Shown: positions 4,968 through 62,362, counted from the stretch's first letter. The stretch is DNA of 64,000 nt from Alkalispirochaeta sp. (GCA_965601925.1 OZ271854.1:640001-704000), one strand, 5' to 3'. Program-made: numbers and translations. The notes: a model not told the origin generated them from the sequence alone.

Positions 4968-6416
4968 ATGGTACCGATTACGGTGGCCCGAGGAGACGGG
5001 ATTGGACCCGAAATCATGGATGCGTCGTTGCGCATTCTGCAGGAGGCCGGAGCTGATATCGAGATAGAAGAGGTAATGGTCGGTGAGAAGGTATACCTTT
5101 CCGGTAATACATCCGGCATCGAGCCGGCGTTTTGGGATTCCATCCGTCGAACAAAGGTATTCTACAAGGCGCCGTTGACGACTCCTCAGGGAGGCGGTTA
5201 CAAAAGCATCAACGTCACTACACGTAAGACGCTATCGCTCTATGCGAACGTTCGTCCCGCGCGATCACTGCATCCCTTCGTCGAGACCAAACATCCCAAA
5301 CAGGACCTCGTAGTGATCCGTGAAAACGAGGAAGACCTCTACGCGGGAATAGAGCATCGGCAAACCGACGAGGTCTATCAGTGCCTCAAGCTCATATCGC
5401 GACCCGGAAGCGAGCGCATCATCCGCTACGCCTTTGAGTACGCCAGAGCCAATAACCGCCAAAAGGTCACCTGTTTTACCAAAGACAATATCATGAAGCT
5501 CACCGACGGACTCTTTCACGACGTCTTCGACGAGGTCGCCGCCGAGTACCCCGACGTTGAAAACGAGCACTGGATCGTCGATATCGGCGCGGCGAAGATG
5601 GCCGACGCACCGGAGAACTTCGACGTACTGGTCCTCCCCAACCTCTACGGAGACGTTCTCTCCGACGTCGCAGCCCAGATCGCGGGTTCCGTCGGCATGG
5701 CCGGCAGCGCCAACATCGGCGAGCACGCGGCGATGTTCGAGGCGATTCACGGAAGCGCGCCGCGCCGGGCGGGTCAGAATCTCGCCAATCCGTCGGGACT
5801 GCTGCAGGGCGGCATCATGATGTTGGTACACATCGGACAAAGCGAGGCCGCCGAACGCGTCCACAACGCGTGGTTGCGCACGATCGAGGAGGGAATTCAC
5901 ACCTACGACATCTATCGCGAGGGAGTGAGCAAACAAAAGGTCGGCACCAAGGAGTTTGCCGATGCGGTGATCGAACGCCTCGGGAAGAAACCGGAGACGT
6001 TGCAGGCGGTAAGCTACGCCGGGAGCGCCGGCGTGCCCGCAGCGACGTCGGCATCAAAACGTAAGCCGGCGGAGCGAATTCTCAAAGGTGCGGACATCTT
6101 TCTCTCCTGGGACGAGGCCGACCGAAGTCCGGAGGTGCTCGGAGAGACGCTGAGCAAAGCAAGCGACGACCGCATCAAACTCACAATGATCACCAACCGC
6201 GGCCTCAAAGTATGGCCTAAGGGGGCGCCGGAGACCTTCTGCACCGACCACTGGCGGTGTCGCTTCGAGGGCGCAACCGATGCGGTCCAACTGAAGCCCC
6301 AAGACATCGTCGACGCGCAGCAGCGGGTACTGCAAAACGGGTTCGACATCATAAAGACGGAGAATCTGTACACATTCGACGGTGTTCCCGGATACTCGTT
6401 GGGCCAGGGGCAATAG
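4968..6416 (+). CDS. icd: NADP-dependent isocitrate dehydrogenase (type with C-terminal extension)
   Basis: GDGIGPEI, KAPLTTP, RENEEDLYAGIE, NLYGDVLSD, FEAIHGSAP; C-terminal TFCTDHWRCRF and YSLGQGQ; AGGAGG RBS. Confidence 0.96.
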   Translation: MVPITVARGDGIGPEIMDASLRILQEAGADIEIEEVMVGEKVYLSGNTSGIEPAFWDSIRRTKVFYKAPLTTPQGGGYKSINVTTRKTLSLYANVRPARSLHPFVETKHPKQDLVVIRENEEDLYAGIEHRQTDEVYQCLKLISRPGSERIIRYAFEYARANNRQKVTCFTKDNIMKLTDGLFHDVFDEVAAEYPDVENEHWIVDIGAAKMADAPENFDVLVLPNLYGDVLSDVAAQIAGSVGMAGSANIGEHAAMFEAIHGSAPRRAGQNLANPSGLLQGGIMMLVHIGQSEAAERVHNAWLRTIEEGIHTYDIYREGVSKQKVGTKEFADAVIERLGKKPETLQAVSYAGSAGVPAATSASKRKPAERILKGADIFLSWDEADRSPEVLGETLSKASDDRIKLTMITNRGLKVWPKGAPETFCTDHWRCRFEGATDAVQLKPQDIVDAQQRVLQNGFDIIKTENLYTFDGVPGYSLGQGQ

Positions 6417-6433
6417 CTCGCAATCTATCACAT

Positions 6434-6463
6434 CGACCGAGGACGCCCCGGCGTTCTCGGTCG
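6434..6463. terminator. GC-rich hairpin between convergent genes (possible terminator)
   Basis: CGACCGAGGACGCC-CC-GGCGTTCTCGGTCG inverted repeat after the icd stop; no U-tract. Confidence 0.4.
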
Positions 6464-6527
6464 CACCTCACCTTCGGACACGCACCGTGTACGATTTCCA
6501 CGATCGGTAGGCGGAAGCCGGCGCTCG

Positions 6528-11531: not shown

Positions 11532-12584
11532 TTACCGGCGGGACGCGGCGGCCGCAATCCCCTTATCTACACGATCCGCGATCGCCTGCCGCTTTTCCGG
11601 AGAGCCGAGCACACCGGCCGCGGCGTTTCGTTGCCACTCCGCTACATCGTCCGCGGTAAATCCGAACTGCCGCGTCACGCGAAAAAACTCGTCGGTGTAG
11701 GTCGTCGCGAACATCGGGGGATCGTCGGAATTGACGGTGACGACGAGTCCGCTCTCCACCAGACGCGGCAACGGATGCTCCGCCAACGACGGTACGACGC
11801 CGAGACACACGTTGCTGGACGGACACACCTCGAGAAGAATGCGCCGGGAACGCAGATACTCGACCAGCTCGGGATCCTCCAGACAGCGTACACCGTGACC
11901 GATACGCACGGCGCCCAGCTCCTCGAGGGCGCCCCAAATGCTCGCGGGCCCGTCGGTCTCGCCGGCGTGGATTACGGCGGGCACTCCGGCACGTCCGGTG
12001 ATATCAAACGCCGCCTTGAACATCTCGGGTGGAAACCCGATCTCGTAACCACCGAGCCCCATCGCCACGATCGTCTCCCCCCAACTACCCGCAAGCCACT
12101 CGGCAACGAGGACTCCCTCCTCGGGCGTGCCGGTATCGCGCGGGATATCGACGATAACGCCGAAGGAGACGTCCAACTCCCGCTCCGCCCACGCACGCGC
12201 GCGATCGAGCGCTGCGAGTTGTGCGTCAAAGGCGATGTCGTAGTTCTGATAATGGGTGAGAGCGGTAAACGTGAACTCGGTATAGACGATATTTTGAGCC
12301 GCCTGGCCCTTAATGAAGTCCTTTGCGAGCAGTTCGATATCGTCCGCCGAACGAATGCACTTGGACGAGGTGTGATAAACGTCGGCAAAGTGCGGAAAGT
12401 CCTTGAACGTGTACCACCTCGCAATCGCCTCCGGTGTATCCACCGGCAGCGCTACACCGTTTCGCCGAGCAAGCTCGAGCAGCGTCTCGGGAGGTATACT
12501 CCCCTCTAAGTGAACGTGCAACTCGACTTTGGGAATCTCTCGAATGAAGGAATCCAACTGCTGTTGTGTACGTACCGCGTCCAT
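11532..12584 (-). CDS. add: Adenosine/adenine deaminase
   Basis: PKVELHVHLEGS, HAGET, RIGHG, EVCPSSN, NSDDP. Confidence 0.93.
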   Translation of the reverse strand: MDAVRTQQQLDSFIREIPKVELHVHLEGSIPPETLLELARRNGVALPVDTPEAIARWYTFKDFPHFADVYHTSSKCIRSADDIELLAKDFIKGQAAQNIVYTEFTFTALTHYQNYDIAFDAQLAALDRARAWAERELDVSFGVIVDIPRDTGTPEEGVLVAEWLAGSWGETIVAMGLGGYEIGFPPEMFKAAFDITGRAGVPAVIHAGETDGPASIWGALEELGAVRIGHGVRCLEDPELVEYLRSRRILLEVCPSSNVCLGVVPSLAEHPLPRLVESGLVVTVNSDDPPMFATTYTDEFFRVTRQFGFTADDVAEWQRNAAAGVLGSPEKRQAIADRVDKGIAAAASRR

Positions 12585-12691
12585 GTACCACCATCATACG
12601 ACGCGGAGGTACCTCGAGCAAAGATATGCTATGCGAACACGCCCGCCGCCGATACACGCGACATGCGCCGCGTCTCCGGCGCAACCGTCGT

Positions 12692-13147
12692 TCACCGCAG
12701 CGTCAGGATGTAGTCCCAACACGCTGCCGAGACGGGCATGATCGATAGCCGATTACCGCGCCGTACAAGCGGCATCTCGGCGAGCGCCTCTTCATGGTCT
12801 TTGAGCGTATCGAGAGTAATCATAGCGTCAAACTTCTCGACAAACTCGACGTCGACGCGAAACCAGCGCGGGTTATCGGGATCGCTCTTCGCGTCGTAGT
12901 GCTTGTCCTCGGGATCGAACGCCGCAGAGTCGGGGTACGCGTCGGTGACGATTTTCATGATGCCGACGATGCCCGGCGGCTTGCTGTTGGAGTGGTAGAA
13001 AAACGCCAAATCGCCGACGCGCATGTCGTCGCGAATCATGTTACGAACCTGGTAGTTTCGAATGCCGTCCCACGGCTCAACCCCAACGCGCTGCAGATCA
13101 TCGATGCCGAACTCATCGGGTTCGGACTTCATCAGCCAATACGCCAT
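12692..13147 (-). CDS. EVE domain protein
   Basis: YWLMKSEP, WDGIRNYQVRN, GDLAFFYHS, RLSIMPV. Confidence 0.93.
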   Translation of the reverse strand: MAYWLMKSEPDEFGIDDLQRVGVEPWDGIRNYQVRNMIRDDMRVGDLAFFYHSNSKPPGIVGIMKIVTDAYPDSAAFDPEDKHYDAKSDPDNPRWFRVDVEFVEKFDAMITLDTLKDHEEALAEMPLVRRGNRLSIMPVSAACWDYILTLR

Positions 13148-13354
13148 ACACTTCCTCATATGCCCGGCGAAAACCGAGCCGTGCTTTTCCGCCAGAAGGT
13201 ACACGAATCGGACCGAAAACGACAATTACACGAAACGAGGGAGGCGGTCCGGACGCACCCGCGGTGCCGGCCGGGATGTTCTCCGTCATACCGGCCCGCC
13301 GATTCCGCCGCGGAGCCGCTCCGGATGCGCCATTCGGTGTAGTATGACGGCACA

Positions 13355-13385
13355 GGAAACCGCGCGGCGGTTCTCTCGTCGTAAT
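13355..13385 (+). promoter_or_regulatory. Putative ECF-sigma promoter (autoregulatory) upstream of the sigZ-like gene
   Basis: GGAAAC-N16-CGTCGTAAT; matches the generic ECF AAC/CGT pattern and the motif upstream of arsM. Confidence 0.6.
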
Positions 13386-13400
13386 GAATGAGGACAACGA

Positions 13401-14012
13401 ATGGAAGAGCTGTATCGAGAACTACACGACGCCGTGTTTCGGTACGTACGCCGACATATTGACTCGGACGAGACTGCCGAAGACATAACTCACGACATCT
13501 TTCTTAAGCTTCTTATCGCATTTCGCGACGGCGACGCGATTCGGAATGCCGGAGCGTTTCTCTTTCGCGCCGCAAAACACCGTATCATCGATTACTATCG
13601 TACCCGACGAGTCGGAGAACCGTACACGGAGATCGGCGACGACGTTGACGATCGTCGTCGCGACGAGATTGGTAGGATCGAGATTGCAAGCTGGATGCGC
13701 GGCACGATCGCAGCGTTGAGTGAGCCGTATCGCACCACTCTATTGATGACCGATATCGACCGCCTCCCGTACGGCGAGGTCGCACGCCGCCTCGATCTCA
13801 CGCCCTCGGGGGTGAAAAGCCGCGTCCGGCGCGGACGAGCGATGATGCGAGAGCGTCTTCTGGCGTGTTGTCGCTTTGTGTTCGACGCGAGAGGCCGCGT
13901 CGTGGACTACGAGTCCATTGCGTGGAGAGCCCGAAGGGGACGCCGCGAGTGCGCAGCGGAAGGAACGACACCGACCATCCGTGAATCGTGTGGGTGCAAC
14001 ACGTCTCAATGA
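13401..14012 (+). CDS. sigZ: ECF sigma-70 factor, SigZ-like, with Cys-rich C-terminal tail
   Basis: AEDITHDIFLK, IIDYYR, GVKSRVRRGR regions 2 and 4; ACCRFVFDARGRVVDY SigZ-type motif; tail with C and CGC. Confidence 0.85.
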   Translation: MEELYRELHDAVFRYVRRHIDSDETAEDITHDIFLKLLIAFRDGDAIRNAGAFLFRAAKHRIIDYYRTRRVGEPYTEIGDDVDDRRRDEIGRIEIASWMRGTIAALSEPYRTTLLMTDIDRLPYGEVARRLDLTPSGVKSRVRRGRAMMRERLLACCRFVFDARGRVVDYESIAWRARRGRRECAAEGTTPTIRESCGCNTSQ

Positions 14013-14384
14013 GAGACGTGACGCCGGATCACCTTCGATGAAGATCAACACATAGGTACCGGCGAATAGACCGTTGCGCGCAAAGACAGATTGAGTCACG
14101 GGACCGCAGTCGTCAGGATCGACGGGGGCGAAATCGACCGTGAGAGGAAGTTCATCGGCGAGAGCCGGTTTCGGCCGAAACCGCGACCTATCGCGGGCCG
14201 ATTACGCACGAACGGGTAGCGAATGCCGATCCGGCGGCGGCGCCTCGATTTACACGGACGCAGTGCATAAACCTCAAGGAATACACGCCGATCTATAATG
14301 AGGAACGTGCCGATCGACCGTCGGCGTGAGGCCGATACGCACGAATGGTCGGATATAGGCGCGCAGGACACTATCGTGAGCGTT

Positions 14385-15176
14385 ATGAAACTGTTGAGCC
14401 CGATCCGGCGTATCATTCGTCGATACGTCGAGATTCACGGATCACTTTTGACGAAAGGCTTGAGCTTCAGCCTCATCGTCGGAACCGTTCCCCTTCTCTT
14501 CACGCTCTTTTTAGCCGGTTCCATCCTCGTGACTCCGGAGATCGTAACGCTCTTGGAGGGGGAGCTTCTAAACTTTTTGCCCGAAGGGATACGTCGTGGG
14601 TTTCTCGCCGGAATCGAGCGGTACTCCCGTAACCCGGGCTCCCTGTCTCTGTTCACCGTCGCCTTTTTTCTCTTGGCGGTAAACAACCTCTTTTTCGACC
14701 TCTATCGTACGCTCGCAGTCGGCATCGGTTGCCGCTGGTCGCCCAAACGAGGTCGCATTGCCGCGGTGGCCGCCGGCGCGCTGCTTCTGGCCCTGCTGTA
14801 CGTCGCTGCGCTCGCCTCCGCGGCCGCGGAGCTCATAGGTCGGATCTATCCCCTTCCGACGAGGTTGATCACCTTCGGAAGTCGGTCCTTTTCGGCCCTC
14901 GTTGCCACCGGCGCCTTCTTTGCCATCTTTCGCGCCGCCGCCGGGCGACCGCTCAAGAGGGGACGCACCATAGCCATCTCGCTGGGAGCGGCGATCGTGT
15001 GGCGCGTTCTGTTTACCGCCGGCGGCGCAACGGTACGCGTCGCCGGCTCGCGCTTCGTCGCCTACGGTGTGATGGCGTGGGCGGTCGTATTTCTCACCTT
15101 CATGCGTCTTATGGCGGAGATCCTGCTCTTTTCCGCAATTCTCATACGCGAGTTCGCCGTGTCCGACGACACATAA
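14385..15176 (+). CDS. YihY/BrkB-family membrane protein
   Basis: About six TM helices; GLSFSLIVGTVPLL and AYGVMAWAVVFL resemble YihY signatures. Confidence 0.7.
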   Translation: MKLLSPIRRIIRRYVEIHGSLLTKGLSFSLIVGTVPLLFTLFLAGSILVTPEIVTLLEGELLNFLPEGIRRGFLAGIERYSRNPGSLSLFTVAFFLLAVNNLFFDLYRTLAVGIGCRWSPKRGRIAAVAAGALLLALLYVAALASAAAELIGRIYPLPTRLITFGSRSFSALVATGAFFAIFRAAAGRPLKRGRTIAISLGAAIVWRVLFTAGGATVRVAGSRFVAYGVMAWAVVFLTFMRLMAEILLFSAILIREFAVSDDT

Positions 15177-15280
15177 CCGTCCCGCACCTCGATCATCCCC
15201 TGCCGGCGACCTGTCTATCGAACATGCGGTCGCCGACGGGCCTACGCGTGCGGTCGCCCGCCGGACCGCGCGGGCCGAGC

Positions 15281-16084
15281 TTACGCAGGCGGTTTGTGCC
15301 CGCGAATGGTCGCCGATGCGACGGGATAGTTCGGCTTGTCGATGCTCTTCCACGACACATTCGAGCCGCCGATCTCCACGCCGGCCTCCTCAAAGCCGGC
15401 TACCCTGAGCATGTCGACGACCGACTCTTCGGTCTCCGCTCCACTCACGCACGATCCGTACAACGCCATGTCGGAGCGCTCTGCGTCGGTCATCGGTCGT
15501 AACGCGATGATATCGGAGATCGCTAGCCGTCCTCCCGGCTTCAGTACGCGAAACACCTCGGCAAACACCCTCCCCTTCTCGGGCGAGAGATTGACCACGC
15601 AATTCGAAATCACGACGTCCACGCTGTTATCGGAGAGTGGAAGCGCCTCGATCTCCCCGAGAACGAACGCGACGTTCTCGACCCCGCCGATACGCGCGTT
15701 ACGGCGAGCTTTCTCGACCATCTCCGGTGTCATGTCCACACCGATTACGCGTCCCGCCGGACCGACGGTGCGCGCCGCGAGAAAGACGTCGACGCCGGCA
15801 CCGCTTCCCAAATCGAGCACCGTCTCGCCGGGCGCCAACTCGGCGACGAGAGTCGGATTCCCGCATCCGAGGCCCAGATCGGCCCCTTTCGGGAGCGTGC
15901 GTATCTGATCAGCGGTATATCCTCCGCCGCACTGCGTCGAGGCACCCTCCTCGGAGGAAGATCCGCAACAAGAGACGGTCTCGCCCACCGTTTCGCAACA
16001 CGATCGGTCGTCCTCGGACTCGACGACGACCGATCGATATCGATCTCGCACGGTCGAGCGTACAGCCTTTGGTGAAACGTTCAT
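15281..16084 (-). CDS. arsM: Arsenite S-adenosylmethionine methyltransferase
   Basis: GLGCGNP, LDLGSGAGVD, GVDMTPEM, ISNCVVNLSP, GSCVSGA; N-terminal CC pairs; AAGGAG RBS. Confidence 0.9.
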   Translation of the reverse strand: MNVSPKAVRSTVRDRYRSVVVESEDDRSCCETVGETVSCCGSSSEEGASTQCGGGYTADQIRTLPKGADLGLGCGNPTLVAELAPGETVLDLGSGAGVDVFLAARTVGPAGRVIGVDMTPEMVEKARRNARIGGVENVAFVLGEIEALPLSDNSVDVVISNCVVNLSPEKGRVFAEVFRVLKPGGRLAISDIIALRPMTDAERSDMALYGSCVSGAETEESVVDMLRVAGFEEAGVEIGGSNVSWKSIDKPNYPVASATIRGHKPPA

Positions 16085-16116
16085 ACTCCACTCCTTTGTA
16101 GCGATAGTTGCATACC

Positions 16117-16148
16117 ATTACAGACGACGAGGCGGAGTGACGGTTTCA
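16117..16148 (-). promoter_or_regulatory. Putative ECF-sigma promoter upstream of arsM
   Basis: Minus strand TGAAAC-N16-CGTCTGTAAT, same architecture as 13355-13385. Confidence 0.6.
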
Positions 16149-16179
16149 CGGTGCGGGTGCACCCACGGTACGGCCGAGA

Positions 16180-16890
16180 CTAAAAGGGAAAGCCGAACAC
16201 CGGTCCCAATCCTACGGTGAACAACCAAAACCCATACACGCCGTGGAGCAGGCATAGCGACAAGAACCGTCGTGAACGCAGCCAATGGAGGGAGAAGACG
16301 TATCCACCGGCAAAGGTAAGGGCGTAGACGATCGGATGGTGCAGGATCGCATGGGCGATCGAGAACGAGACGGCGTTCAAGAGTAGCGCGAGCCATCGTC
16401 GGTCTCCCCACAGCACGCGATATCGGTCGAAAAAGACCACGCGAAACAGCGCCTCCTGCGGCGCAACCGAGCCCACGGTGTAGATGAACCAAAACAGGAG
16501 CCACCGACGCGGCGCTTCCCGGGGAGCGCTAAAGAGCAAATCGGGCCGAATCAGCGCGATCATTACTGCAGAGACGACGGCAAAGGCGAGAAACGTGATG
16601 CTGATAGCTGCGAAATCGGGCGGCAGACGACGCCGCACCCCCGACTCGGAGCGTTTGGTGCGGCCGACACGCCCGCCGCGCGACGTTTTGCGCGAGCGTC
16701 GTGCACGTATACCGACGACGGCGATCCAGACGATCGCGACCAAAAACGCCGGAACGTACCATCGGGGCCTCAAACCGGCAAGCGGGAGGGCCGGGATAAG
16801 CACATAAATGATAATGAACTCGACGGTTAGAGCGATGCGGCGGGCTGCGCGCGCTTCGTTGGTTCGAGACGCGTGTACATTATCGTTCAC
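16180..16890 (-). CDS. CPBP (CAAX/Abi) family intramembrane metalloprotease
   Basis: PQEALFR, FSIAH, LLHG motifs in multiple TM helices; GTG start approximate. Confidence 0.8.
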   Translation of the reverse strand: MNDNVHASRTNEARAARRIALTVEFIIIYVLIPALPLAGLRPRWYVPAFLVAIVWIAVVGIRARRSRKTSRGGRVGRTKRSESGVRRRLPPDFAAISITFLAFAVVSAVMIALIRPDLLFSAPREAPRRWLLFWFIYTVGSVAPQEALFRVVFFDRYRVLWGDRRWLALLLNAVSFSIAHAILHHPIVYALTFAGGYVFSLHWLRSRRFLSLCLLHGVYGFWLFTVGLGPVFGFPF

Positions 16891-16941
16891 GGTGTGGTAC
16901 CGCCTCTCTCGCGTCACAGTAGGAGTGCCATATGCGGTCCA

Positions 16942-16980
16942 TTGACTACCTCTCAAAATTAGTTGTATTGTAAAATATAT
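16942..16980 (+). promoter_or_regulatory. Sigma70-like promoter in an AT-rich patch upstream of the ABC operon
   Basis: TTGACT-N18-TATTGT followed by AAAATATAT. Confidence 0.4.
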
Positions 16981-17028
16981 CGTAAAGACGACGGTCGAGG
17001 GGCAGACCGTAACAATGGCTACGCAACA

Positions 17029-17847
17029 GTGAAAGCAAAAACAACCCGATACAACCTGCCCGCCGGCGTAAAGCGTCTTACACCGTCTACGAACTTCATC
17101 ATCGGAAGTGCCGTTGTTTCGGCGCTCATAGCGGTGTGGTGGATCATAGCGGCGCTCGAAGTTGTTCCGCGCCTGTTCGTCCCCCATCCGATGGAAGTCG
17201 TACGCGCTTTTCTCGATATTTTGATGTACGGCTATCGCGGCGGAACGCTTCTCTTTCACCTTCGTTCGAGTCTGTGGCGCGTCTTCGCAGGGTTTGCCCT
17301 CGCCGTTGTTACGGCGGTCCCCATCGGGTTATGGATGGGCCACAACCGCTTCATCTATGCCGCCTTCGATCCGATTCTACAGTTCTATCGCCCCCTGCCG
17401 CCGTTGGCCTACTACACGGTACTCATCCTGTGGCTCGGCATAGACAATGAGTCCAAGATTGCACTGCTCTATCTCGCCGCATTTCCACCGTTGGCGATCA
17501 GCGCCTCATCGGCGGTACGGAGTGTGTCCGAGGAGAAGCTCCACGCAGCGCGTTCCCTCGGCGCCGACGAGATGCAGGTGATGTGGCACGTCATCTTTCC
17601 GGCGTGTCTACCCCAGATTCTTACCGGCATGCGCGTGAGCGTCGGGTTCACCTACACCACGCTCGTCGCTTCGGAGATCGTCGCGGCTCAGTCGGGTATC
17701 GGCTGGATGGTGCTGGACGCGAGCAACTTCCTCAGGAGTGACGTCATATTCATGGGTATATTCGTAATGGGCATCACCGGGGTCCTGTTGGACCGTGGGA
17801 TCGTCCTTATCGAACGACGGCTGGTGCCGTGGAAAGGGAGAGAATAA
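17029..17847 (+). CDS. tauC: Taurine/sulfonate-type ABC transporter permease
   Basis: RPLPPLAYYTVLILWLGIDNESK, AARSLGA EAA loop, TTLVASEIVAAQSGIGWMV. Confidence 0.85.
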   Translation: MKAKTTRYNLPAGVKRLTPSTNFIIGSAVVSALIAVWWIIAALEVVPRLFVPHPMEVVRAFLDILMYGYRGGTLLFHLRSSLWRVFAGFALAVVTAVPIGLWMGHNRFIYAAFDPILQFYRPLPPLAYYTVLILWLGIDNESKIALLYLAAFPPLAISASSAVRSVSEEKLHAARSLGADEMQVMWHVIFPACLPQILTGMRVSVGFTYTTLVASEIVAAQSGIGWMVLDASNFLRSDVIFMGIFVMGITGVLLDRGIVLIERRLVPWKGRE

Positions 17848-18878
17848 TGCAACGAAAAGTCATCGCGACGATAGTCGCTGTGTGGATCGCGGCGGTAGCG
17901 GCCGCTCCGCTCATGGCCGGAGGCGGTCAAGAGGCCGACTCGGGAATGCCCGAGGAGATCGTCATCGGGTTTCAGGCGATACCGAATGCGGAGATCATCG
18001 CCAAGAACCTCGGCTGGCACGAGGAGGCGCTGGGGATTCCGATCCGTTGGGTGCAGATCGACTCCGGACGCGACTTGAATACGGCGATCGCCGCCGGCGG
18101 CATGGATCTGGGCTTGGGCGGCTCGAGCACGACGGTCGCCGCGATCGCCCAAGGCGTGCCCGGCCAAGTGTTCTGGATCTACGACATCATAGGTGAGAAC
18201 GAGGCGTTGGTGGTCCGCGAGGACTCCGATATCCGCGAGGTCGCCGATCTCGTCGGCCGGCGCGTTGCGGCACCCTTCGGGGCGACGACGCACTATCATC
18301 TCTTGGCGGCGTTTCAGGAGTTCGGCGTAGATCCGGCGACGGTTGAGATCTTCGACATGCAGCCCCCGGAGATGCTCGCGGCGTGGCAGCGGGGAGATAT
18401 CGATGCCGGGTTCGTATGGGAGCCGACCCTCGCCCAAATGCTCGAGTTCGACGGGCGCGTCCTGATATCCAGCGGGGAGCTTGCCTCTCGCGGATACGTA
18501 ACCGGCGATATCGGTCTCGTGCGTACCGCCTTTGCGGAACGCTATCCCGAGGTGGTTTCGACCTATCTCGCGACGCTCCACCGCGCCGTTCAGTTCTACA
18601 GAACCAACCCCGATGAGGCCGCAGAGGCGGTGGCGCGTGAGTTCGGTATCGAGGTCGAAGAGGCGGCCAGGCAAATGGCGAGCCTCGTATGGGTAGACGG
18701 CGAGGAACAGCTCGGCGAGGAGTATCTGGGTACGCCCGGCGCAATCGGCAATCTCGCCGACGTATTCGTGGCGACGGGGCAATTTCTCTTCGAGCAGGGA
18801 ACCATCACAAGCGCCCCCTCGCGAGCGGTATTCGAAGAGGCGATCAATCCACAGTATCTCGAGGAGGCGCTTCAATAG
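17847..18878 (+). CDS. tauA: Taurine/sulfonate-type ABC transporter substrate-binding protein
   Basis: IGENEALVVR, VAAPFGATTHYHLL, AAWQRGDIDAGFVWEP; signal peptide followed by AGGGQE. Confidence 0.85.
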   Translation: MQRKVIATIVAVWIAAVAAAPLMAGGGQEADSGMPEEIVIGFQAIPNAEIIAKNLGWHEEALGIPIRWVQIDSGRDLNTAIAAGGMDLGLGGSSTTVAAIAQGVPGQVFWIYDIIGENEALVVREDSDIREVADLVGRRVAAPFGATTHYHLLAAFQEFGVDPATVEIFDMQPPEMLAAWQRGDIDAGFVWEPTLAQMLEFDGRVLISSGELASRGYVTGDIGLVRTAFAERYPEVVSTYLATLHRAVQFYRTNPDEAAEAVAREFGIEVEEAARQMASLVWVDGEEQLGEEYLGTPGAIGNLADVFVATGQFLFEQGTITSAPSRAVFEEAINPQYLEEALQ

Positions 18879-19651
18879 CCCCTCCGCTTATCTCATTTCG
18901 CGACGCCTCGGTCGTCTTCCCTACCCGGGGAGGCGGCGTCGAGGCGCTCAAAAACATCAATCTCGAGGTACAGCCGGGAGATTTTGTGTGCGTGGTGGGG
19001 CCGTCGGGAAGCGGCAAGACGACGCTCCTGCGCCTCATTGCCGGCTTTCTCACACCGACGGGGGGCGACGTCCGCTTTCAGGGAAGCGCCATACGCGAAC
19101 CGGGGTGGGAACGCGGCGTCGTATTCCAGAGCGCGTCGCTGTATCCGTGGCTCTCGGTCTATCGCAACGTGGAGTTCGGTCCCCGGATGCGCGGCATGGC
19201 AAAGGGTGAACGCCGCGAGTCGGTCGAACGCTATCTGCGGATGGTGAAGCTGTGGGACTATCGCCATCGCCACCCGCACGAGCTCTCCGGCGGCATGCGT
19301 CAGCGCGTCGCAATCGCGCGAGTGCTCGCCAACGAGCCGCAAGTGCTCCTCATGGATGAACCGCTGGGCGCTTTGGACGCCCTGACGCGCGAGCACTTGC
19401 AAGAGGAGCTTCTGGAAATCTGGCGCTCGACGGGAAAGACCGTCGTATTAGTGACTCACAGCGTAGAGGAGGCGGTTTTTCTTGCGACCCATATCGTGGT
19501 GCTCTCCTCGCAGCCCGGTACCATTCTGGCGACGGTGTGTCCGCCCTTCAGCCGCTCCGAGACGGCCGGCCGCGGGCGCGCCATCAAGTCCGACGCGGCC
19601 TTCGTCACGCTTCGCGAAGAGGTGCTCCAGCATATCTGGACGTCTCACTGA
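18875..19651 (+). CDS. tauB: Taurine/nitrate/sulfonate ABC ATP-binding protein (probable ATA start)
   Basis: GPSGSGKT, LSGGMRQR, LLMDEP, VTHSVEEA; GAGGAGG lies 7 nt before ATA 18875. Confidence 0.88.
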   Translation: MAPPLISFRDASVVFPTRGGGVEALKNINLEVQPGDFVCVVGPSGSGKTTLLRLIAGFLTPTGGDVRFQGSAIREPGWERGVVFQSASLYPWLSVYRNVEFGPRMRGMAKGERRESVERYLRMVKLWDYRHRHPHELSGGMRQRVAIARVLANEPQVLLMDEPLGALDALTREHLQEELLEIWRSTGKTVVLVTHSVEEAVFLATHIVVLSSQPGTILATVCPPFSRSETAGRGRAIKSDAAFVTLREEVLQHIWTSH

Positions 19652-60458: not shown

Positions 60459-61454
60459 GTGAACGTCTCATCTCGGAGCCGCTTGGACCGCATTGCTAAG
60501 CTGAGTATAACCGTTGCGTTCCTCGGCATCGCGGTACAACTCTACCGTCTGTTTATCGAGCTCTCCCGATTCCGGGCCTTTGCGGCGACGGTGGTCAGTC
60601 TCTCGCTGGAGGCACTTCCGTTTCTCATTCTCGGTTCGGTGGCCGCGGCGGCGGTACGAGTCTTTGCTCCCGGCGACGCGCTGCGACGGATCGCCCGACG
60701 CATGGGTCCGGCCGGTATTCCGATCGCCGCGCTGACCGGCATCGTCGCTCCGGTGTGTGAATGCGCCATCGTCCCCACCGTGGCCGGACTACGCGACCGA
60801 GGGCTGCCCCTCCCCTACGCGGTTACGGTCCTTACGGCGGTACCCCTCTTTAATCCGATCGTGTTAGCCTCAACGATCGCGGCATTTCCCGGTCGTCCCG
60901 AGCTCGTTGCGGCACGATTCGGCGGAGGATTCGCCGTTGCGATCCTCACCGGGTTGGTGTTCTATGTAGTCGAGACGGCGCGGGGTGGCAATGCAGCGGA
61001 CGCCGCTCCGGTCGACCCAATTACGAAGTCGGTTCGGATACCGCTCTCGCGCCGTATAGCGGCCCTCGCGGGCGACGCGCTGGATGAGTTTCTGGAAGTC
61101 ACGCGATACTTCATGGTAGGAGTGCTTCTGTCCTCCCTCGTTCAGGTGATGGTTCCGGTTGATTTTTTCGCGACCCTTGGGTCCTCCGCGCTCTTGGCCG
61201 GGTTGGCGATGATCGCGTTGGCCTTCATCCTGTCGGTCTGCAGCGAGGCCGATGCTTTCATCGCCAAGGCTTTTTTGCCGCTCCTGCCCGCCTCGTCGGT
61301 GATCGCTTTCCTCGTTTTCGGACCGATGTTGGATCTCAAGAACACGGCAATGCTTCACCGCGTCATGACCGGACGCCACATTCTCACGCTTGCCGCCGCA
61401 CTGACGACCTTCGTTATTGCGTTGGTATTTGTATTGGAGGCGCTATGGGCGTAA
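60459..61454 (+). CDS. DUF318 (YcgR/ArsP-like) permease
   Basis: LEALPFLILG, PVCECAIVP, SVCSEADAF, FLVFGPMLDLKN. Confidence 0.88.
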   Translation: MNVSSRSRLDRIAKLSITVAFLGIAVQLYRLFIELSRFRAFAATVVSLSLEALPFLILGSVAAAAVRVFAPGDALRRIARRMGPAGIPIAALTGIVAPVCECAIVPTVAGLRDRGLPLPYAVTVLTAVPLFNPIVLASTIAAFPGRPELVAARFGGGFAVAILTGLVFYVVETARGGNAADAAPVDPITKSVRIPLSRRIAALAGDALDEFLEVTRYFMVGVLLSSLVQVMVPVDFFATLGSSALLAGLAMIALAFILSVCSEADAFIAKAFLPLLPASSVIAFLVFGPMLDLKNTAMLHRVMTGRHILTLAAALTTFVIALVFVLEALWA

Positions 61455-62362
61455 AACGTATAATCCTGCCGATCGCGGTTACTCTCACGGCGCTCGCGAT
61501 CTTCGGCATCCTCGTCGCGGCTACCGCAAACGGTACGGTGCGCACGATACTCAACCCGCGTATTCTTCCTCGAACGCTCGCAGGCGCGGGCGCACTGCTT
61601 ATACTCGCTGTTTGGCGCCTGTGGCGCGCGATATCGTCACCCGACGCGTGCCACGCGGAAGACGATCATTCCCATGTGCATCAACACTCCCACGGATCGT
61701 CCGTGTTTCGTCGAATCTGGCCGCTGGTGTTGCCCCTCACGCTCCTACCCGCCTCGACGAGTCACCGTTCGGTCGACTATAGCTCGATTCGACTCTTCAC
61801 CGCCGGCGGCGCCGGCATCGCTTCGTCGGACACCCCCGTCGTGCCGCCCCCCGGAGACGAGTTGTGGGTGGACGAGCCCAATACCGCACTCCTCGACGCG
61901 GTCGCCGAGGTCACCGGACTAGCGTCTACGACGGATGAACGCGTCGCCGAGCTCGACGCTTTGGCCCGGTCCTCGGGGATCATCGCCATCGAGGAGGAGA
62001 ACTTCTCGCGGCGTATCGATCTATTGTGGGATGCGCCGGACCGCTTTGTCGGTCGCACCGTCGAGCTCACCGGGTTTGTGTATCGCAGGCCCGACTGGCC
62101 TATGGATACCTTCGTGGTTGCGCGTCTCTCGATCTGGTGTTGCGTCGCCGACGCCGCCGTCGTGGGACTCCTCGTACAGGTGCCGGATGTACACTCCGCG
62201 CCGCCGGACGGCACGTGGATCGATATTCGCGGCGCGGTCGCGCGACGTGACGAGTTCAGGGCGGAGCCGTTGGCGATGGAACATGTGCCCGAGCTGACCG
62301 ATGTTACGTGGACGGTTGTCGATCCTCCCGAATTCGAGTACGTATTTCCCATAGGGTGGTAG
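61445..62362 (+). CDS. TIGR03943/DUF1980 (YcgQ-like) membrane protein
   Basis: His-rich loop CHAEDDHSHVHQHSH; GFVYR, RLSIWCCVADA. Confidence 0.85.
   Translation: MGVKRIILPIAVTLTALAIFGILVAATANGTVRTILNPRILPRTLAGAGALLILAVWRLWRAISSPDACHAEDDHSHVHQHSHGSSVFRRIWPLVLPLTLLPASTSHRSVDYSSIRLFTAGGAGIASSDTPVVPPPGDELWVDEPNTALLDAVAEVTGLASTTDERVAELDALARSSGIIAIEEENFSRRIDLLWDAPDRFVGRTVELTGFVYRRPDWPMDTFVVARLSIWCCVADAAVVGLLVQVPDVHSAPPDGTWIDIRGAVARRDEFRAEPLAMEHVPELTDVTWTVVDPPEFEYVFPIGW

Follow-up and report, generated by a model that had tools for sequence, protein, structure and literature searches.

In a 64,000-nt stretch of the Alkalispirochaeta sp. genome (GCA_965601925.1 OZ271854.1:640001-704000; hereafter the window, spanning genome positions 640001-704000), a gene for a SigZ-like extracytoplasmic function (ECF) sigma factor with a cysteine-bearing tail lies close to arsM, the gene for an arsenite methyltransferase on the opposite strand (Table 1). 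The original prediction for this locus was that the two genes share a promoter motif and form an arsenite-sensing sigma regulon without ArsR. Comparison with related loci shows a recurrent pairing of the two genes, a predicted promoter specific for linked arsM genes, and invariant cysteines in the sigma tail. In our numbering of genomes (G) and loci (L), G000 is the genome of the window.

Table 1. Features of the sigma-arsM locus, with positions counted from the first nucleotide of the window
Feature	Position	Strand	Remarks
Predicted ECF promoter of the sigma gene	13355-13385	+	-35 GGAAAC, 16-nt spacer, -10 CGTC; from sequence
SigZ-like ECF sigma gene, 203 aa (ECF238/old ECF24-type)	13401..14012	+	Pfam Sigma70_r2, r4_2; best NCBIfam is SigZ, below cut-off
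Cys156-Cys157 codons	13866..13871	+	End of last sigma-4 helix, then predicted beta-hairpin (residues 157-172)
Low-confidence sigma tail with C184, C197, C199	13950..13997	+	Predicted local distance difference test (pLDDT) 45-59
YihY/BrkB-family membrane protein gene, between sigma and arsM	14385..15176	+	Pfam PF03631; longest open reading frame from 14298
arsM, arsenite S-adenosylmethionine methyltransferase, 267 aa	15281..16084	-	PRK11873 316.9 bits, cut-off 263
Predicted ECF promoter of arsM	16117-16148	-	-35 TGAAAC, 16-nt spacer, -10 CGTC; conserved before linked arsM
CAAX protease-like (Rce1) gene, upstream of arsM	16180..16890	-	Pfam PF02517
EVE-domain gene, divergent from sigma	12692..13147	-	Pfam PF01878

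Both motifs occur exactly where they had been placed, upstream of the two genes and with equal 16-nt spacing. GGAAAC is followed after the spacer by CGTCGTAAT 15 nt ahead of the sigma ATG at 13401, and TGAAAC by CGTCTGTAAT (16148-16117) 32 nt ahead of the arsM ATG at 16084. The identity of the methyltransferase is indicated by its PRK11873 score above the cut-off and by PDB matches that are arsenite methyltransferases. Its residues C74, C162, and C212, which we take to be equivalent to the catalytic cysteines of CmArsM, are invariant in all five aligned sequences.

Linkage of the sigma gene and arsM across genomes

The order sample comprised 99 genomes of the same order, 13 of which carry this sigma type. 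Ten of these form a subtype with the recognition helix V-K-[STV]-R-[VL]-[HR]-R-G-R (G000, G001, G005, G007, G010, G014, G039, G040, G750, and G754), and in nine of the ten arsM is convergent to the sigma gene within about 2 kb, mostly abutting it, with gaps of 38-115 nt between the matches in G001, G007, G010, G014, G039, and G040. Because sigma and arsM abut in these relatives, the YihY/BrkB gene is apparently a lineage-specific insertion between them. The remaining three sigmas are canonical SigZ types, followed by arsM in G002 and G799 and by a Cys-rich peptide gene in G801.

The pairing extends beyond the order. In a phylum-wide sample of 401 genomes, six pass the SigZ cut-off and two of the six have an adjacent arsM. 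Among 301 Chloroflexota genomes, 26 contain SigZ matches and arsM adjoins sigZ in 16, many of which are close kin rather than independent cases. Single loci from Acidimicrobiia and Dehalococcoidia show the same arrangement, and an arsM peptide pattern was found in at least 18 of 80 metagenome loci (many shorter than 2 kb), one of them probably a duplicate of G087.

The association is not universal, and several loci weigh against arsenic as the common denominator. The subtype member G005 (a 78% complete genome) has no detected arsM and, by eye, molybdenum-cofactor-like neighbors; no ars neighbors were seen by eye at the SigZ loci of G226 and G180; ten of the 26 Chloroflexota SigZ genomes lack an adjacent arsM; and an Opitutaceae SigZ locus is without the pairing. 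In addition, a canonical SigZ promoter precedes a PAP2-family phosphatase gene in L061 (6674-7636, an Opitutaceae genome without arsM) and, in G801 (L260, ~1420-1220, minus strand), the gene for a metallothionein-like peptide of about 62 residues with several cysteines, including CC pairs.

Two loci were dropped from the counts. L063 contains a SigZ-like gene (5947-6500) split by a frameshift, and the family promoter persists there before the upstream gene. In G414, the neighbor of arsM is a different Cys-tailed ECF sigma factor without CC (L090, G414:C15, ~63635-65200, arsM followed by the sigma gene), a second sigma type tied to arsM.

Promoter motif, its probable cognate sigma factor, and its predicted targets

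The pattern GNAACY-N14-TCGTY stands directly upstream of arsM in all nine linked loci of the order sample, versus none of 18 unlinked arsM loci; three of the 18 carry a match downstream of arsM. Within-genome controls are available in G000, G010, and G014, each of which has a second, unlinked arsM-like gene lacking the motif. Similarly, canonical SigZ loci use TGCG(T/A)C-N16-CGTC, which precedes arsM in 14 of 15 linked versus 0 of 7 unlinked Chloroflexota loci and is present in 51 of the 80 metagenome SigZ loci; the control is weakened by the distal operon position of some unlinked arsM genes. These two comparisons support the proposal that the sigma factor activates arsM and point to the motif as the promoter type of the sigma family. 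A second SigZ-like gene of G001 (G001:C16) has a canonical TGCGWC-N16-CGTC site that faces away from it (L029, 7885-7910).

The core motif by itself is not significant. GAAAC-N16-CGTC has 121 matches in the genome, compared with 80-133 for spacers of 10-24 nt, and four matches in the window versus 1.38 expected (5 of 100 shuffles). The genome scan that had been suggested for it thus returned background frequency; the core count was rejected as evidence, and the significance of the motif comes from its conservation in orthologous loci. An extended form with GTAAT, defined after the fact, is confined in the genome to these two sites. A chance origin of both motifs in GC-rich DNA, to which the core count would correspond, is nevertheless highly improbable, and largely refuted by the linked-versus-unlinked comparison in the order, by ten sites that align as GNAAC-N16-CGT without internal gaps, and by the preservation of motif position, strand, and spacer before nine arsM genes whose flanks otherwise differ.

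Since GNAACY-N14-TCGTY was derived from most of the linked sites in which it was then counted, held-out tests matter. A profile built from eight sites of other genomes, G000 excluded, placed the arsM site first among 23 matches in the window (E 0.15) and the sigma site fourth (E 1.9), both weak E-values; taken alone, the predicted promoter of the sigma gene is weak. The held-out sites of G754 were the two top profile matches (E 0.002 and 0.006), a further argument against chance. A genome-wide search with the profile missed both G000 sites at E<=10, which counts against the prediction, and gave two matches, one at a gene start and one inside a coding region (by eye). A stricter pattern recovered the arsM site and two other sites genome-wide, and GNAACY-N14-TCGTY had no match in the ArsR, arsP, and second-arsM regions (L112-L118). 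Within these weak detection limits the regulon in this genome looks like two promoters.

Variation of the -35 box could be correlated with changes in the sigma recognition helix. Position -32 is A wherever the column of residue 143 holds His or Arg (10 of 10 aligned sigmas) and T where it holds Gln (5 of 5); the ten are nine subtype members and G381, an otherwise canonical sigma with the intermediate -35 element TGCGAC. Residue 143 was matched by the K-T-R-x-H-R spacing, not by alignment, to His174 of SigW, which contacts the template bases at -32/-33 in the SigW-DNA structure (PMC6713349). Two observations detract from this argument: about two independent changes account for the covariation, and the -34 rule of the same paper (Gly/Ser with C) fails, as this sigma has Gly/Ser but A at -34.

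The genome contains seven other ECF-sized sigma matches over the cut-off, and cross-talk is therefore possible. GAAAC/CGT resembles the SigW consensus (PMC6713349), and another SigW/SigE-like ECF could read the promoter, the SigZ-like gene being a passenger. We consider this quite improbable, as the motif precedes arsM only where the sigma gene is adjacent and the -35 element varies together with the recognition helix. The comparative data suggest that arsM transcription is very probably driven by the sigma factor encoded next to it, which would read the arsM promoter, and the recognition helix may have been re-tuned in the spirochaete lineage along with the -35 box.

The proposal that the sigma factor also activates its own gene is supported in part. 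Besides this locus (G000), the motif precedes the sigma gene in G750 and G754, in all three with a 16-nt spacer, and in G040 with a 15-nt spacer; it is missing from the other six of the ten subtype members. In Chloroflexota, 10 of 15 linked loci have the canonical SigZ motif before both sigZ and arsM. These counts indicate that the layout with the motif before both genes is recurrent, not universal, and at the locus studied here autoregulation of the sigma factor is somewhat favored by the predicted site.

The genes behind the family promoter point, on predicted functions, to arsenic as their theme. In 25 metagenome promoters, hand-picked from the 51 and mostly taken from loci without a match to the first arsM pattern, the next gene was identified by eye as arsM (7), DUF2703 (6), an ArsP_1 permease (4), a small Cys-rich protein (2), or other or unknown (6). 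Confirmed targets are one DUF2703 and one ArsP_1 gene by Pfam and three arsM genes by pattern. DUF2703 was previously found in an arsenic-induced ars cluster of Rhodococcus (PMC6514093).

Cysteine tail and the proposed arsenic switch

The sigma factor is an ECF (group 4) protein (Pfam PF04542 and PF08281; TIGR02937, 75.6 with a cut-off of 42.9). It scores best against the two SigZ models, yet stays under the curated cut-off of each (TIGR02959, 114.9 versus 168.65; PRK09637, 116.9 versus 212). It is therefore not SigZ by the curated test and is best named SigZ-like, with likely membership in ECF238; the top Foldseek matches of its structural model are generic ECFs only. The tail has the composition originally described, a vicinal CC, a distal cysteine, and CGC (C156, C157, C184, C197, and C199), and thus the Cys-containing C-terminal extension of about 20 residues or more that is a trait of ECF238, with C156, C157, and a distal cysteine conserved. 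In particular, all 150 relatives and all 21 sequences of a smaller alignment keep the C156-C157 pair, and the distal cysteine column is invariant in the latter and at least 90% conserved among the 150; C184 is not conserved in the 21-sequence alignment, and conservation does not extend to the exact CGC. No cysteine occurs N-terminal of residue 156, so the CxC of the sigma2-sigma4 linker that marks CorE-like factors (old ECF44) is absent. In the AlphaFold model (mean pLDDT 86) the CC pair ends the last sigma-4 helix, a beta-hairpin comes next, and the distal cysteines fall in the low-confidence tail.

These features resemble those of several known systems. ECF238, which unites the old groups ECF24 (SigZ) and ECF44, likewise has a short Cys-bearing C-terminal extension and a proposed activation by metal, and it has no anti-sigma factor, as none is encoded by the seven neighbors scanned here. 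The group is said to lack both autoregulation and a conserved promoter (PMC7826278), whereas the loci compared here share a predicted promoter, have arsM as the predicted target, and often show predicted autoregulation. Spirochaetes account for 0.49% of its members (Casas-Pastor et al. 2021, PMC7826278). SigZ of Bacillus subtilis also lacks an anti-sigma factor and has two C-terminal cysteines (PMC7826278), and its family models score best; the sigma factor studied here falls below both SigZ cut-offs and has a -35 GAAAC, in contrast to the C at -34 of the SigZ promoter (PMC6713349). CorE and CorE2 of Myxococcus xanthus (PMC4937300, PMC8999054) are anti-sigma-free ECFs with a Cys tail proposed to sense a thiophilic ion and to activate detoxification genes nearby, and CorE is autoregulated. 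The tail domain of CorE2 contains six cysteines in 28 residues, its linker CxC is essential, and it senses Cd/Zn, whereas CorE senses Cu (PMC4937300); our sigma lacks the linker CxC, carries CC and a distal Cys, and has a predicted target related to arsenic. Finally, AfArsR (Cys95-Cys96-Cys102) and SpArsR share with it the control of ars genes and a vicinal CC plus a third Cys, in these proteins a three-coordinate As(III) site (PMC11868830). ArsR is a winged-helix repressor released by arsenic (PMC11868830), whereas the sigma factor, as the promoter-recognition subunit itself, would be an activator; the resemblance is in the Cys pattern only, not in homology.

By analogy with these systems, we propose the following mechanism. 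The sigma factor would be made at a low level, free of an anti-sigma factor. A trivalent arsenical, either arsenite or a methylated product, would bind Cys156-Cys157 and a distal tail Cys and render the sigma competent, and RNA polymerase with this sigma would then start at the two (T/G)GAAAC-N16-CGTC promoters. The output would be ArsM, for the methylation of As(III), together with additional sigma, a positive feedback. AfArsR and CgArsR bind As(III) through a CC and a third Cys, two cysteines suffice for binding of methylarsenite, MAs(III), in SpArsR (PMC11868830), and CorE and CorE2 exemplify related sigma factors that can be activated through a Cys tail (PMC4937300). We give about even odds to direct activation by a trivalent arsenical, and the complete picture of a one-component arsenic switch that activates arsM and itself might equally well be right or wrong. 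The generalization that SigZ-type sigmas are direct intracellular As(III)/MAs(III) sensors, acting via CC and a distal Cys on arsM/arsP regulons across several phyla, is put forward as a tentative proposal a little short of even. The CC pair is equally invariant in the inspected SigZ-like members with non-arsenic neighbors, a point against the proposed switch.

Alternatively, the ligand could be another soft metal, or the signal a general thiol stress (Cu, Cd, Zn, Hg, Sb, or oxidation); arsM would then be one target among several that protect thiols. The characterized relatives do sense Cu or Cd/Zn, one Cys switches their specificity (PMC4937300), and the family promoter also precedes Cys-rich peptide genes, the PAP2 gene, and other genes. 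On the other hand, arsM, ArsP_1, and DUF2703 are the commonest targets in the sampled promoters, and the CorE linker CxC is missing. ArsM is not known to be of use against Cu or Cd, and we regard such a sensor as unlikely.

The absence of ArsR, the other element of the original prediction, holds for this locus, where the ArsR-type domain HTH_5 has no match in the window, and fails genome-wide and in some relatives. As for the statement that the window lacks an anti-sigma gene, none was found among the seven neighbors scanned, the rest of the window and of the genome lying outside that screen. Elsewhere in G000, an ArsR with a CVC motif leads thioredoxin-arsP, and an arsM-like gene stands behind another ArsR (see below). 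The contigs that carry the sigma gene in G007, G010, and G014 are likewise free of HTH_5 matches, as are the surroundings of 14 of the 16 linked Chloroflexota loci (E<=1e-7); matches lie 1-2 kb upstream of sigZ in G581 and G676. Evidence of a different kind comes from G001, G039, and G040, in which the sigma-arsM pair is embedded in ArsR-led clusters with ArsR-family genes within about 3.5 kb; all three clusters have arsC, those of G001 and G039 also acr3 and arsP, and a sigma-type promoter still directly precedes arsM. The sigma gene of G039 starts in overlap with the stop codon of acr3, which couples it to an arsR-arsC-arsC-acr3 operon.

These loci would suit a sigma factor that is a relay rather than a sensor, always active and transcribing arsM. 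A regulator upstream of it, such as ArsR, would determine its amount, and its cysteines would be structural (for example, binding Zn) or redox-sensitive. This alternative has a minor probability in our estimate: ArsR is absent from the window and from the three sigma contigs and 14 of 16 Chloroflexota loci mentioned above, a self-activating sigma that is always active would lock on, and the region upstream of the sigma gene yielded no sigma-70-like site. The presence of ArsR in some loci and its absence from others suggest that the sigma system runs parallel to ArsR and is sometimes under it, with no genome-wide replacement.

In the cited literature, arsenic genes are controlled by ArsR repressors, including arsM in an anaerobe (PMC11653729), and activation of arsM by a sigma factor would follow a different logic and bear on when anaerobes methylate arsenic. 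We found no paper linking SigZ or any ECF to arsenic or arsM in a search that was thin in subscription journals; in particular, a term search gave no SigZ/ECF-arsenic link in the accessible text of PMC12194929, PMC2700814, PMC12655853, PMC3091736, and PMC11653729, and the string 'arsen' is absent from the main text of PMC7826278 and from its supplement as far as covered (Table S2 outside). The signal that activates SigZ has been a long-standing enigma (PMC7826278). The present analysis gives a SigZ-like sigma factor a defined predicted promoter, a target, and a candidate ligand; if the proposal is true, SigZ-type sigmas would constitute a second, positive arsenic control beside ArsR and supply the missing SigZ signal. 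The sigma factor and its promoter could also be a new part for arsenic biosensors.

Surrounding genes and other arsenic genes

The EVE-domain gene is a bystander, and the CAAX protease-like gene is probably outside the regulon; in G010 a gene resembling the latter stands before the sigma gene (compared by eye). Divergent from the CAAX gene are genes of a taurine/sulfonate-type ATP-binding cassette transporter (window 16963-19651), with a sigma-70-like site at 16942-16971. An Rfam scan of 12500-17200 gave no match, nor did a plasmid search.

The second arsM-like gene of G000 (L115 2783-4716, ~1162280-1164215) scores 238 bits, below the cut-off of 263, and lacks both an N-terminal CC and the sigma motif. 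It follows the gene of an ArsR whose sequence ends in TCC, and a further gene of the ArsR family is divergently oriented. No acr3 was found in this genome. The window itself contains an ArsP_1 match (~60570-61440), which was rejected as a regulon member on account of its different partner and the lack of a link to the motif. At ~60460-62360, this ArsP_1-family permease gene precedes one whose product, a membrane protein, contains a His-rich segment and a WCC motif; we take the pair to be YcgR/YcgQ-like and related to zinc, not arsenic. Finally, a small AbrB-like gene containing a CC motif was seen by eye ahead of several unlinked arsM genes (L039, L043, L044, and L090) and may encode a regulator of arsM of a third kind.

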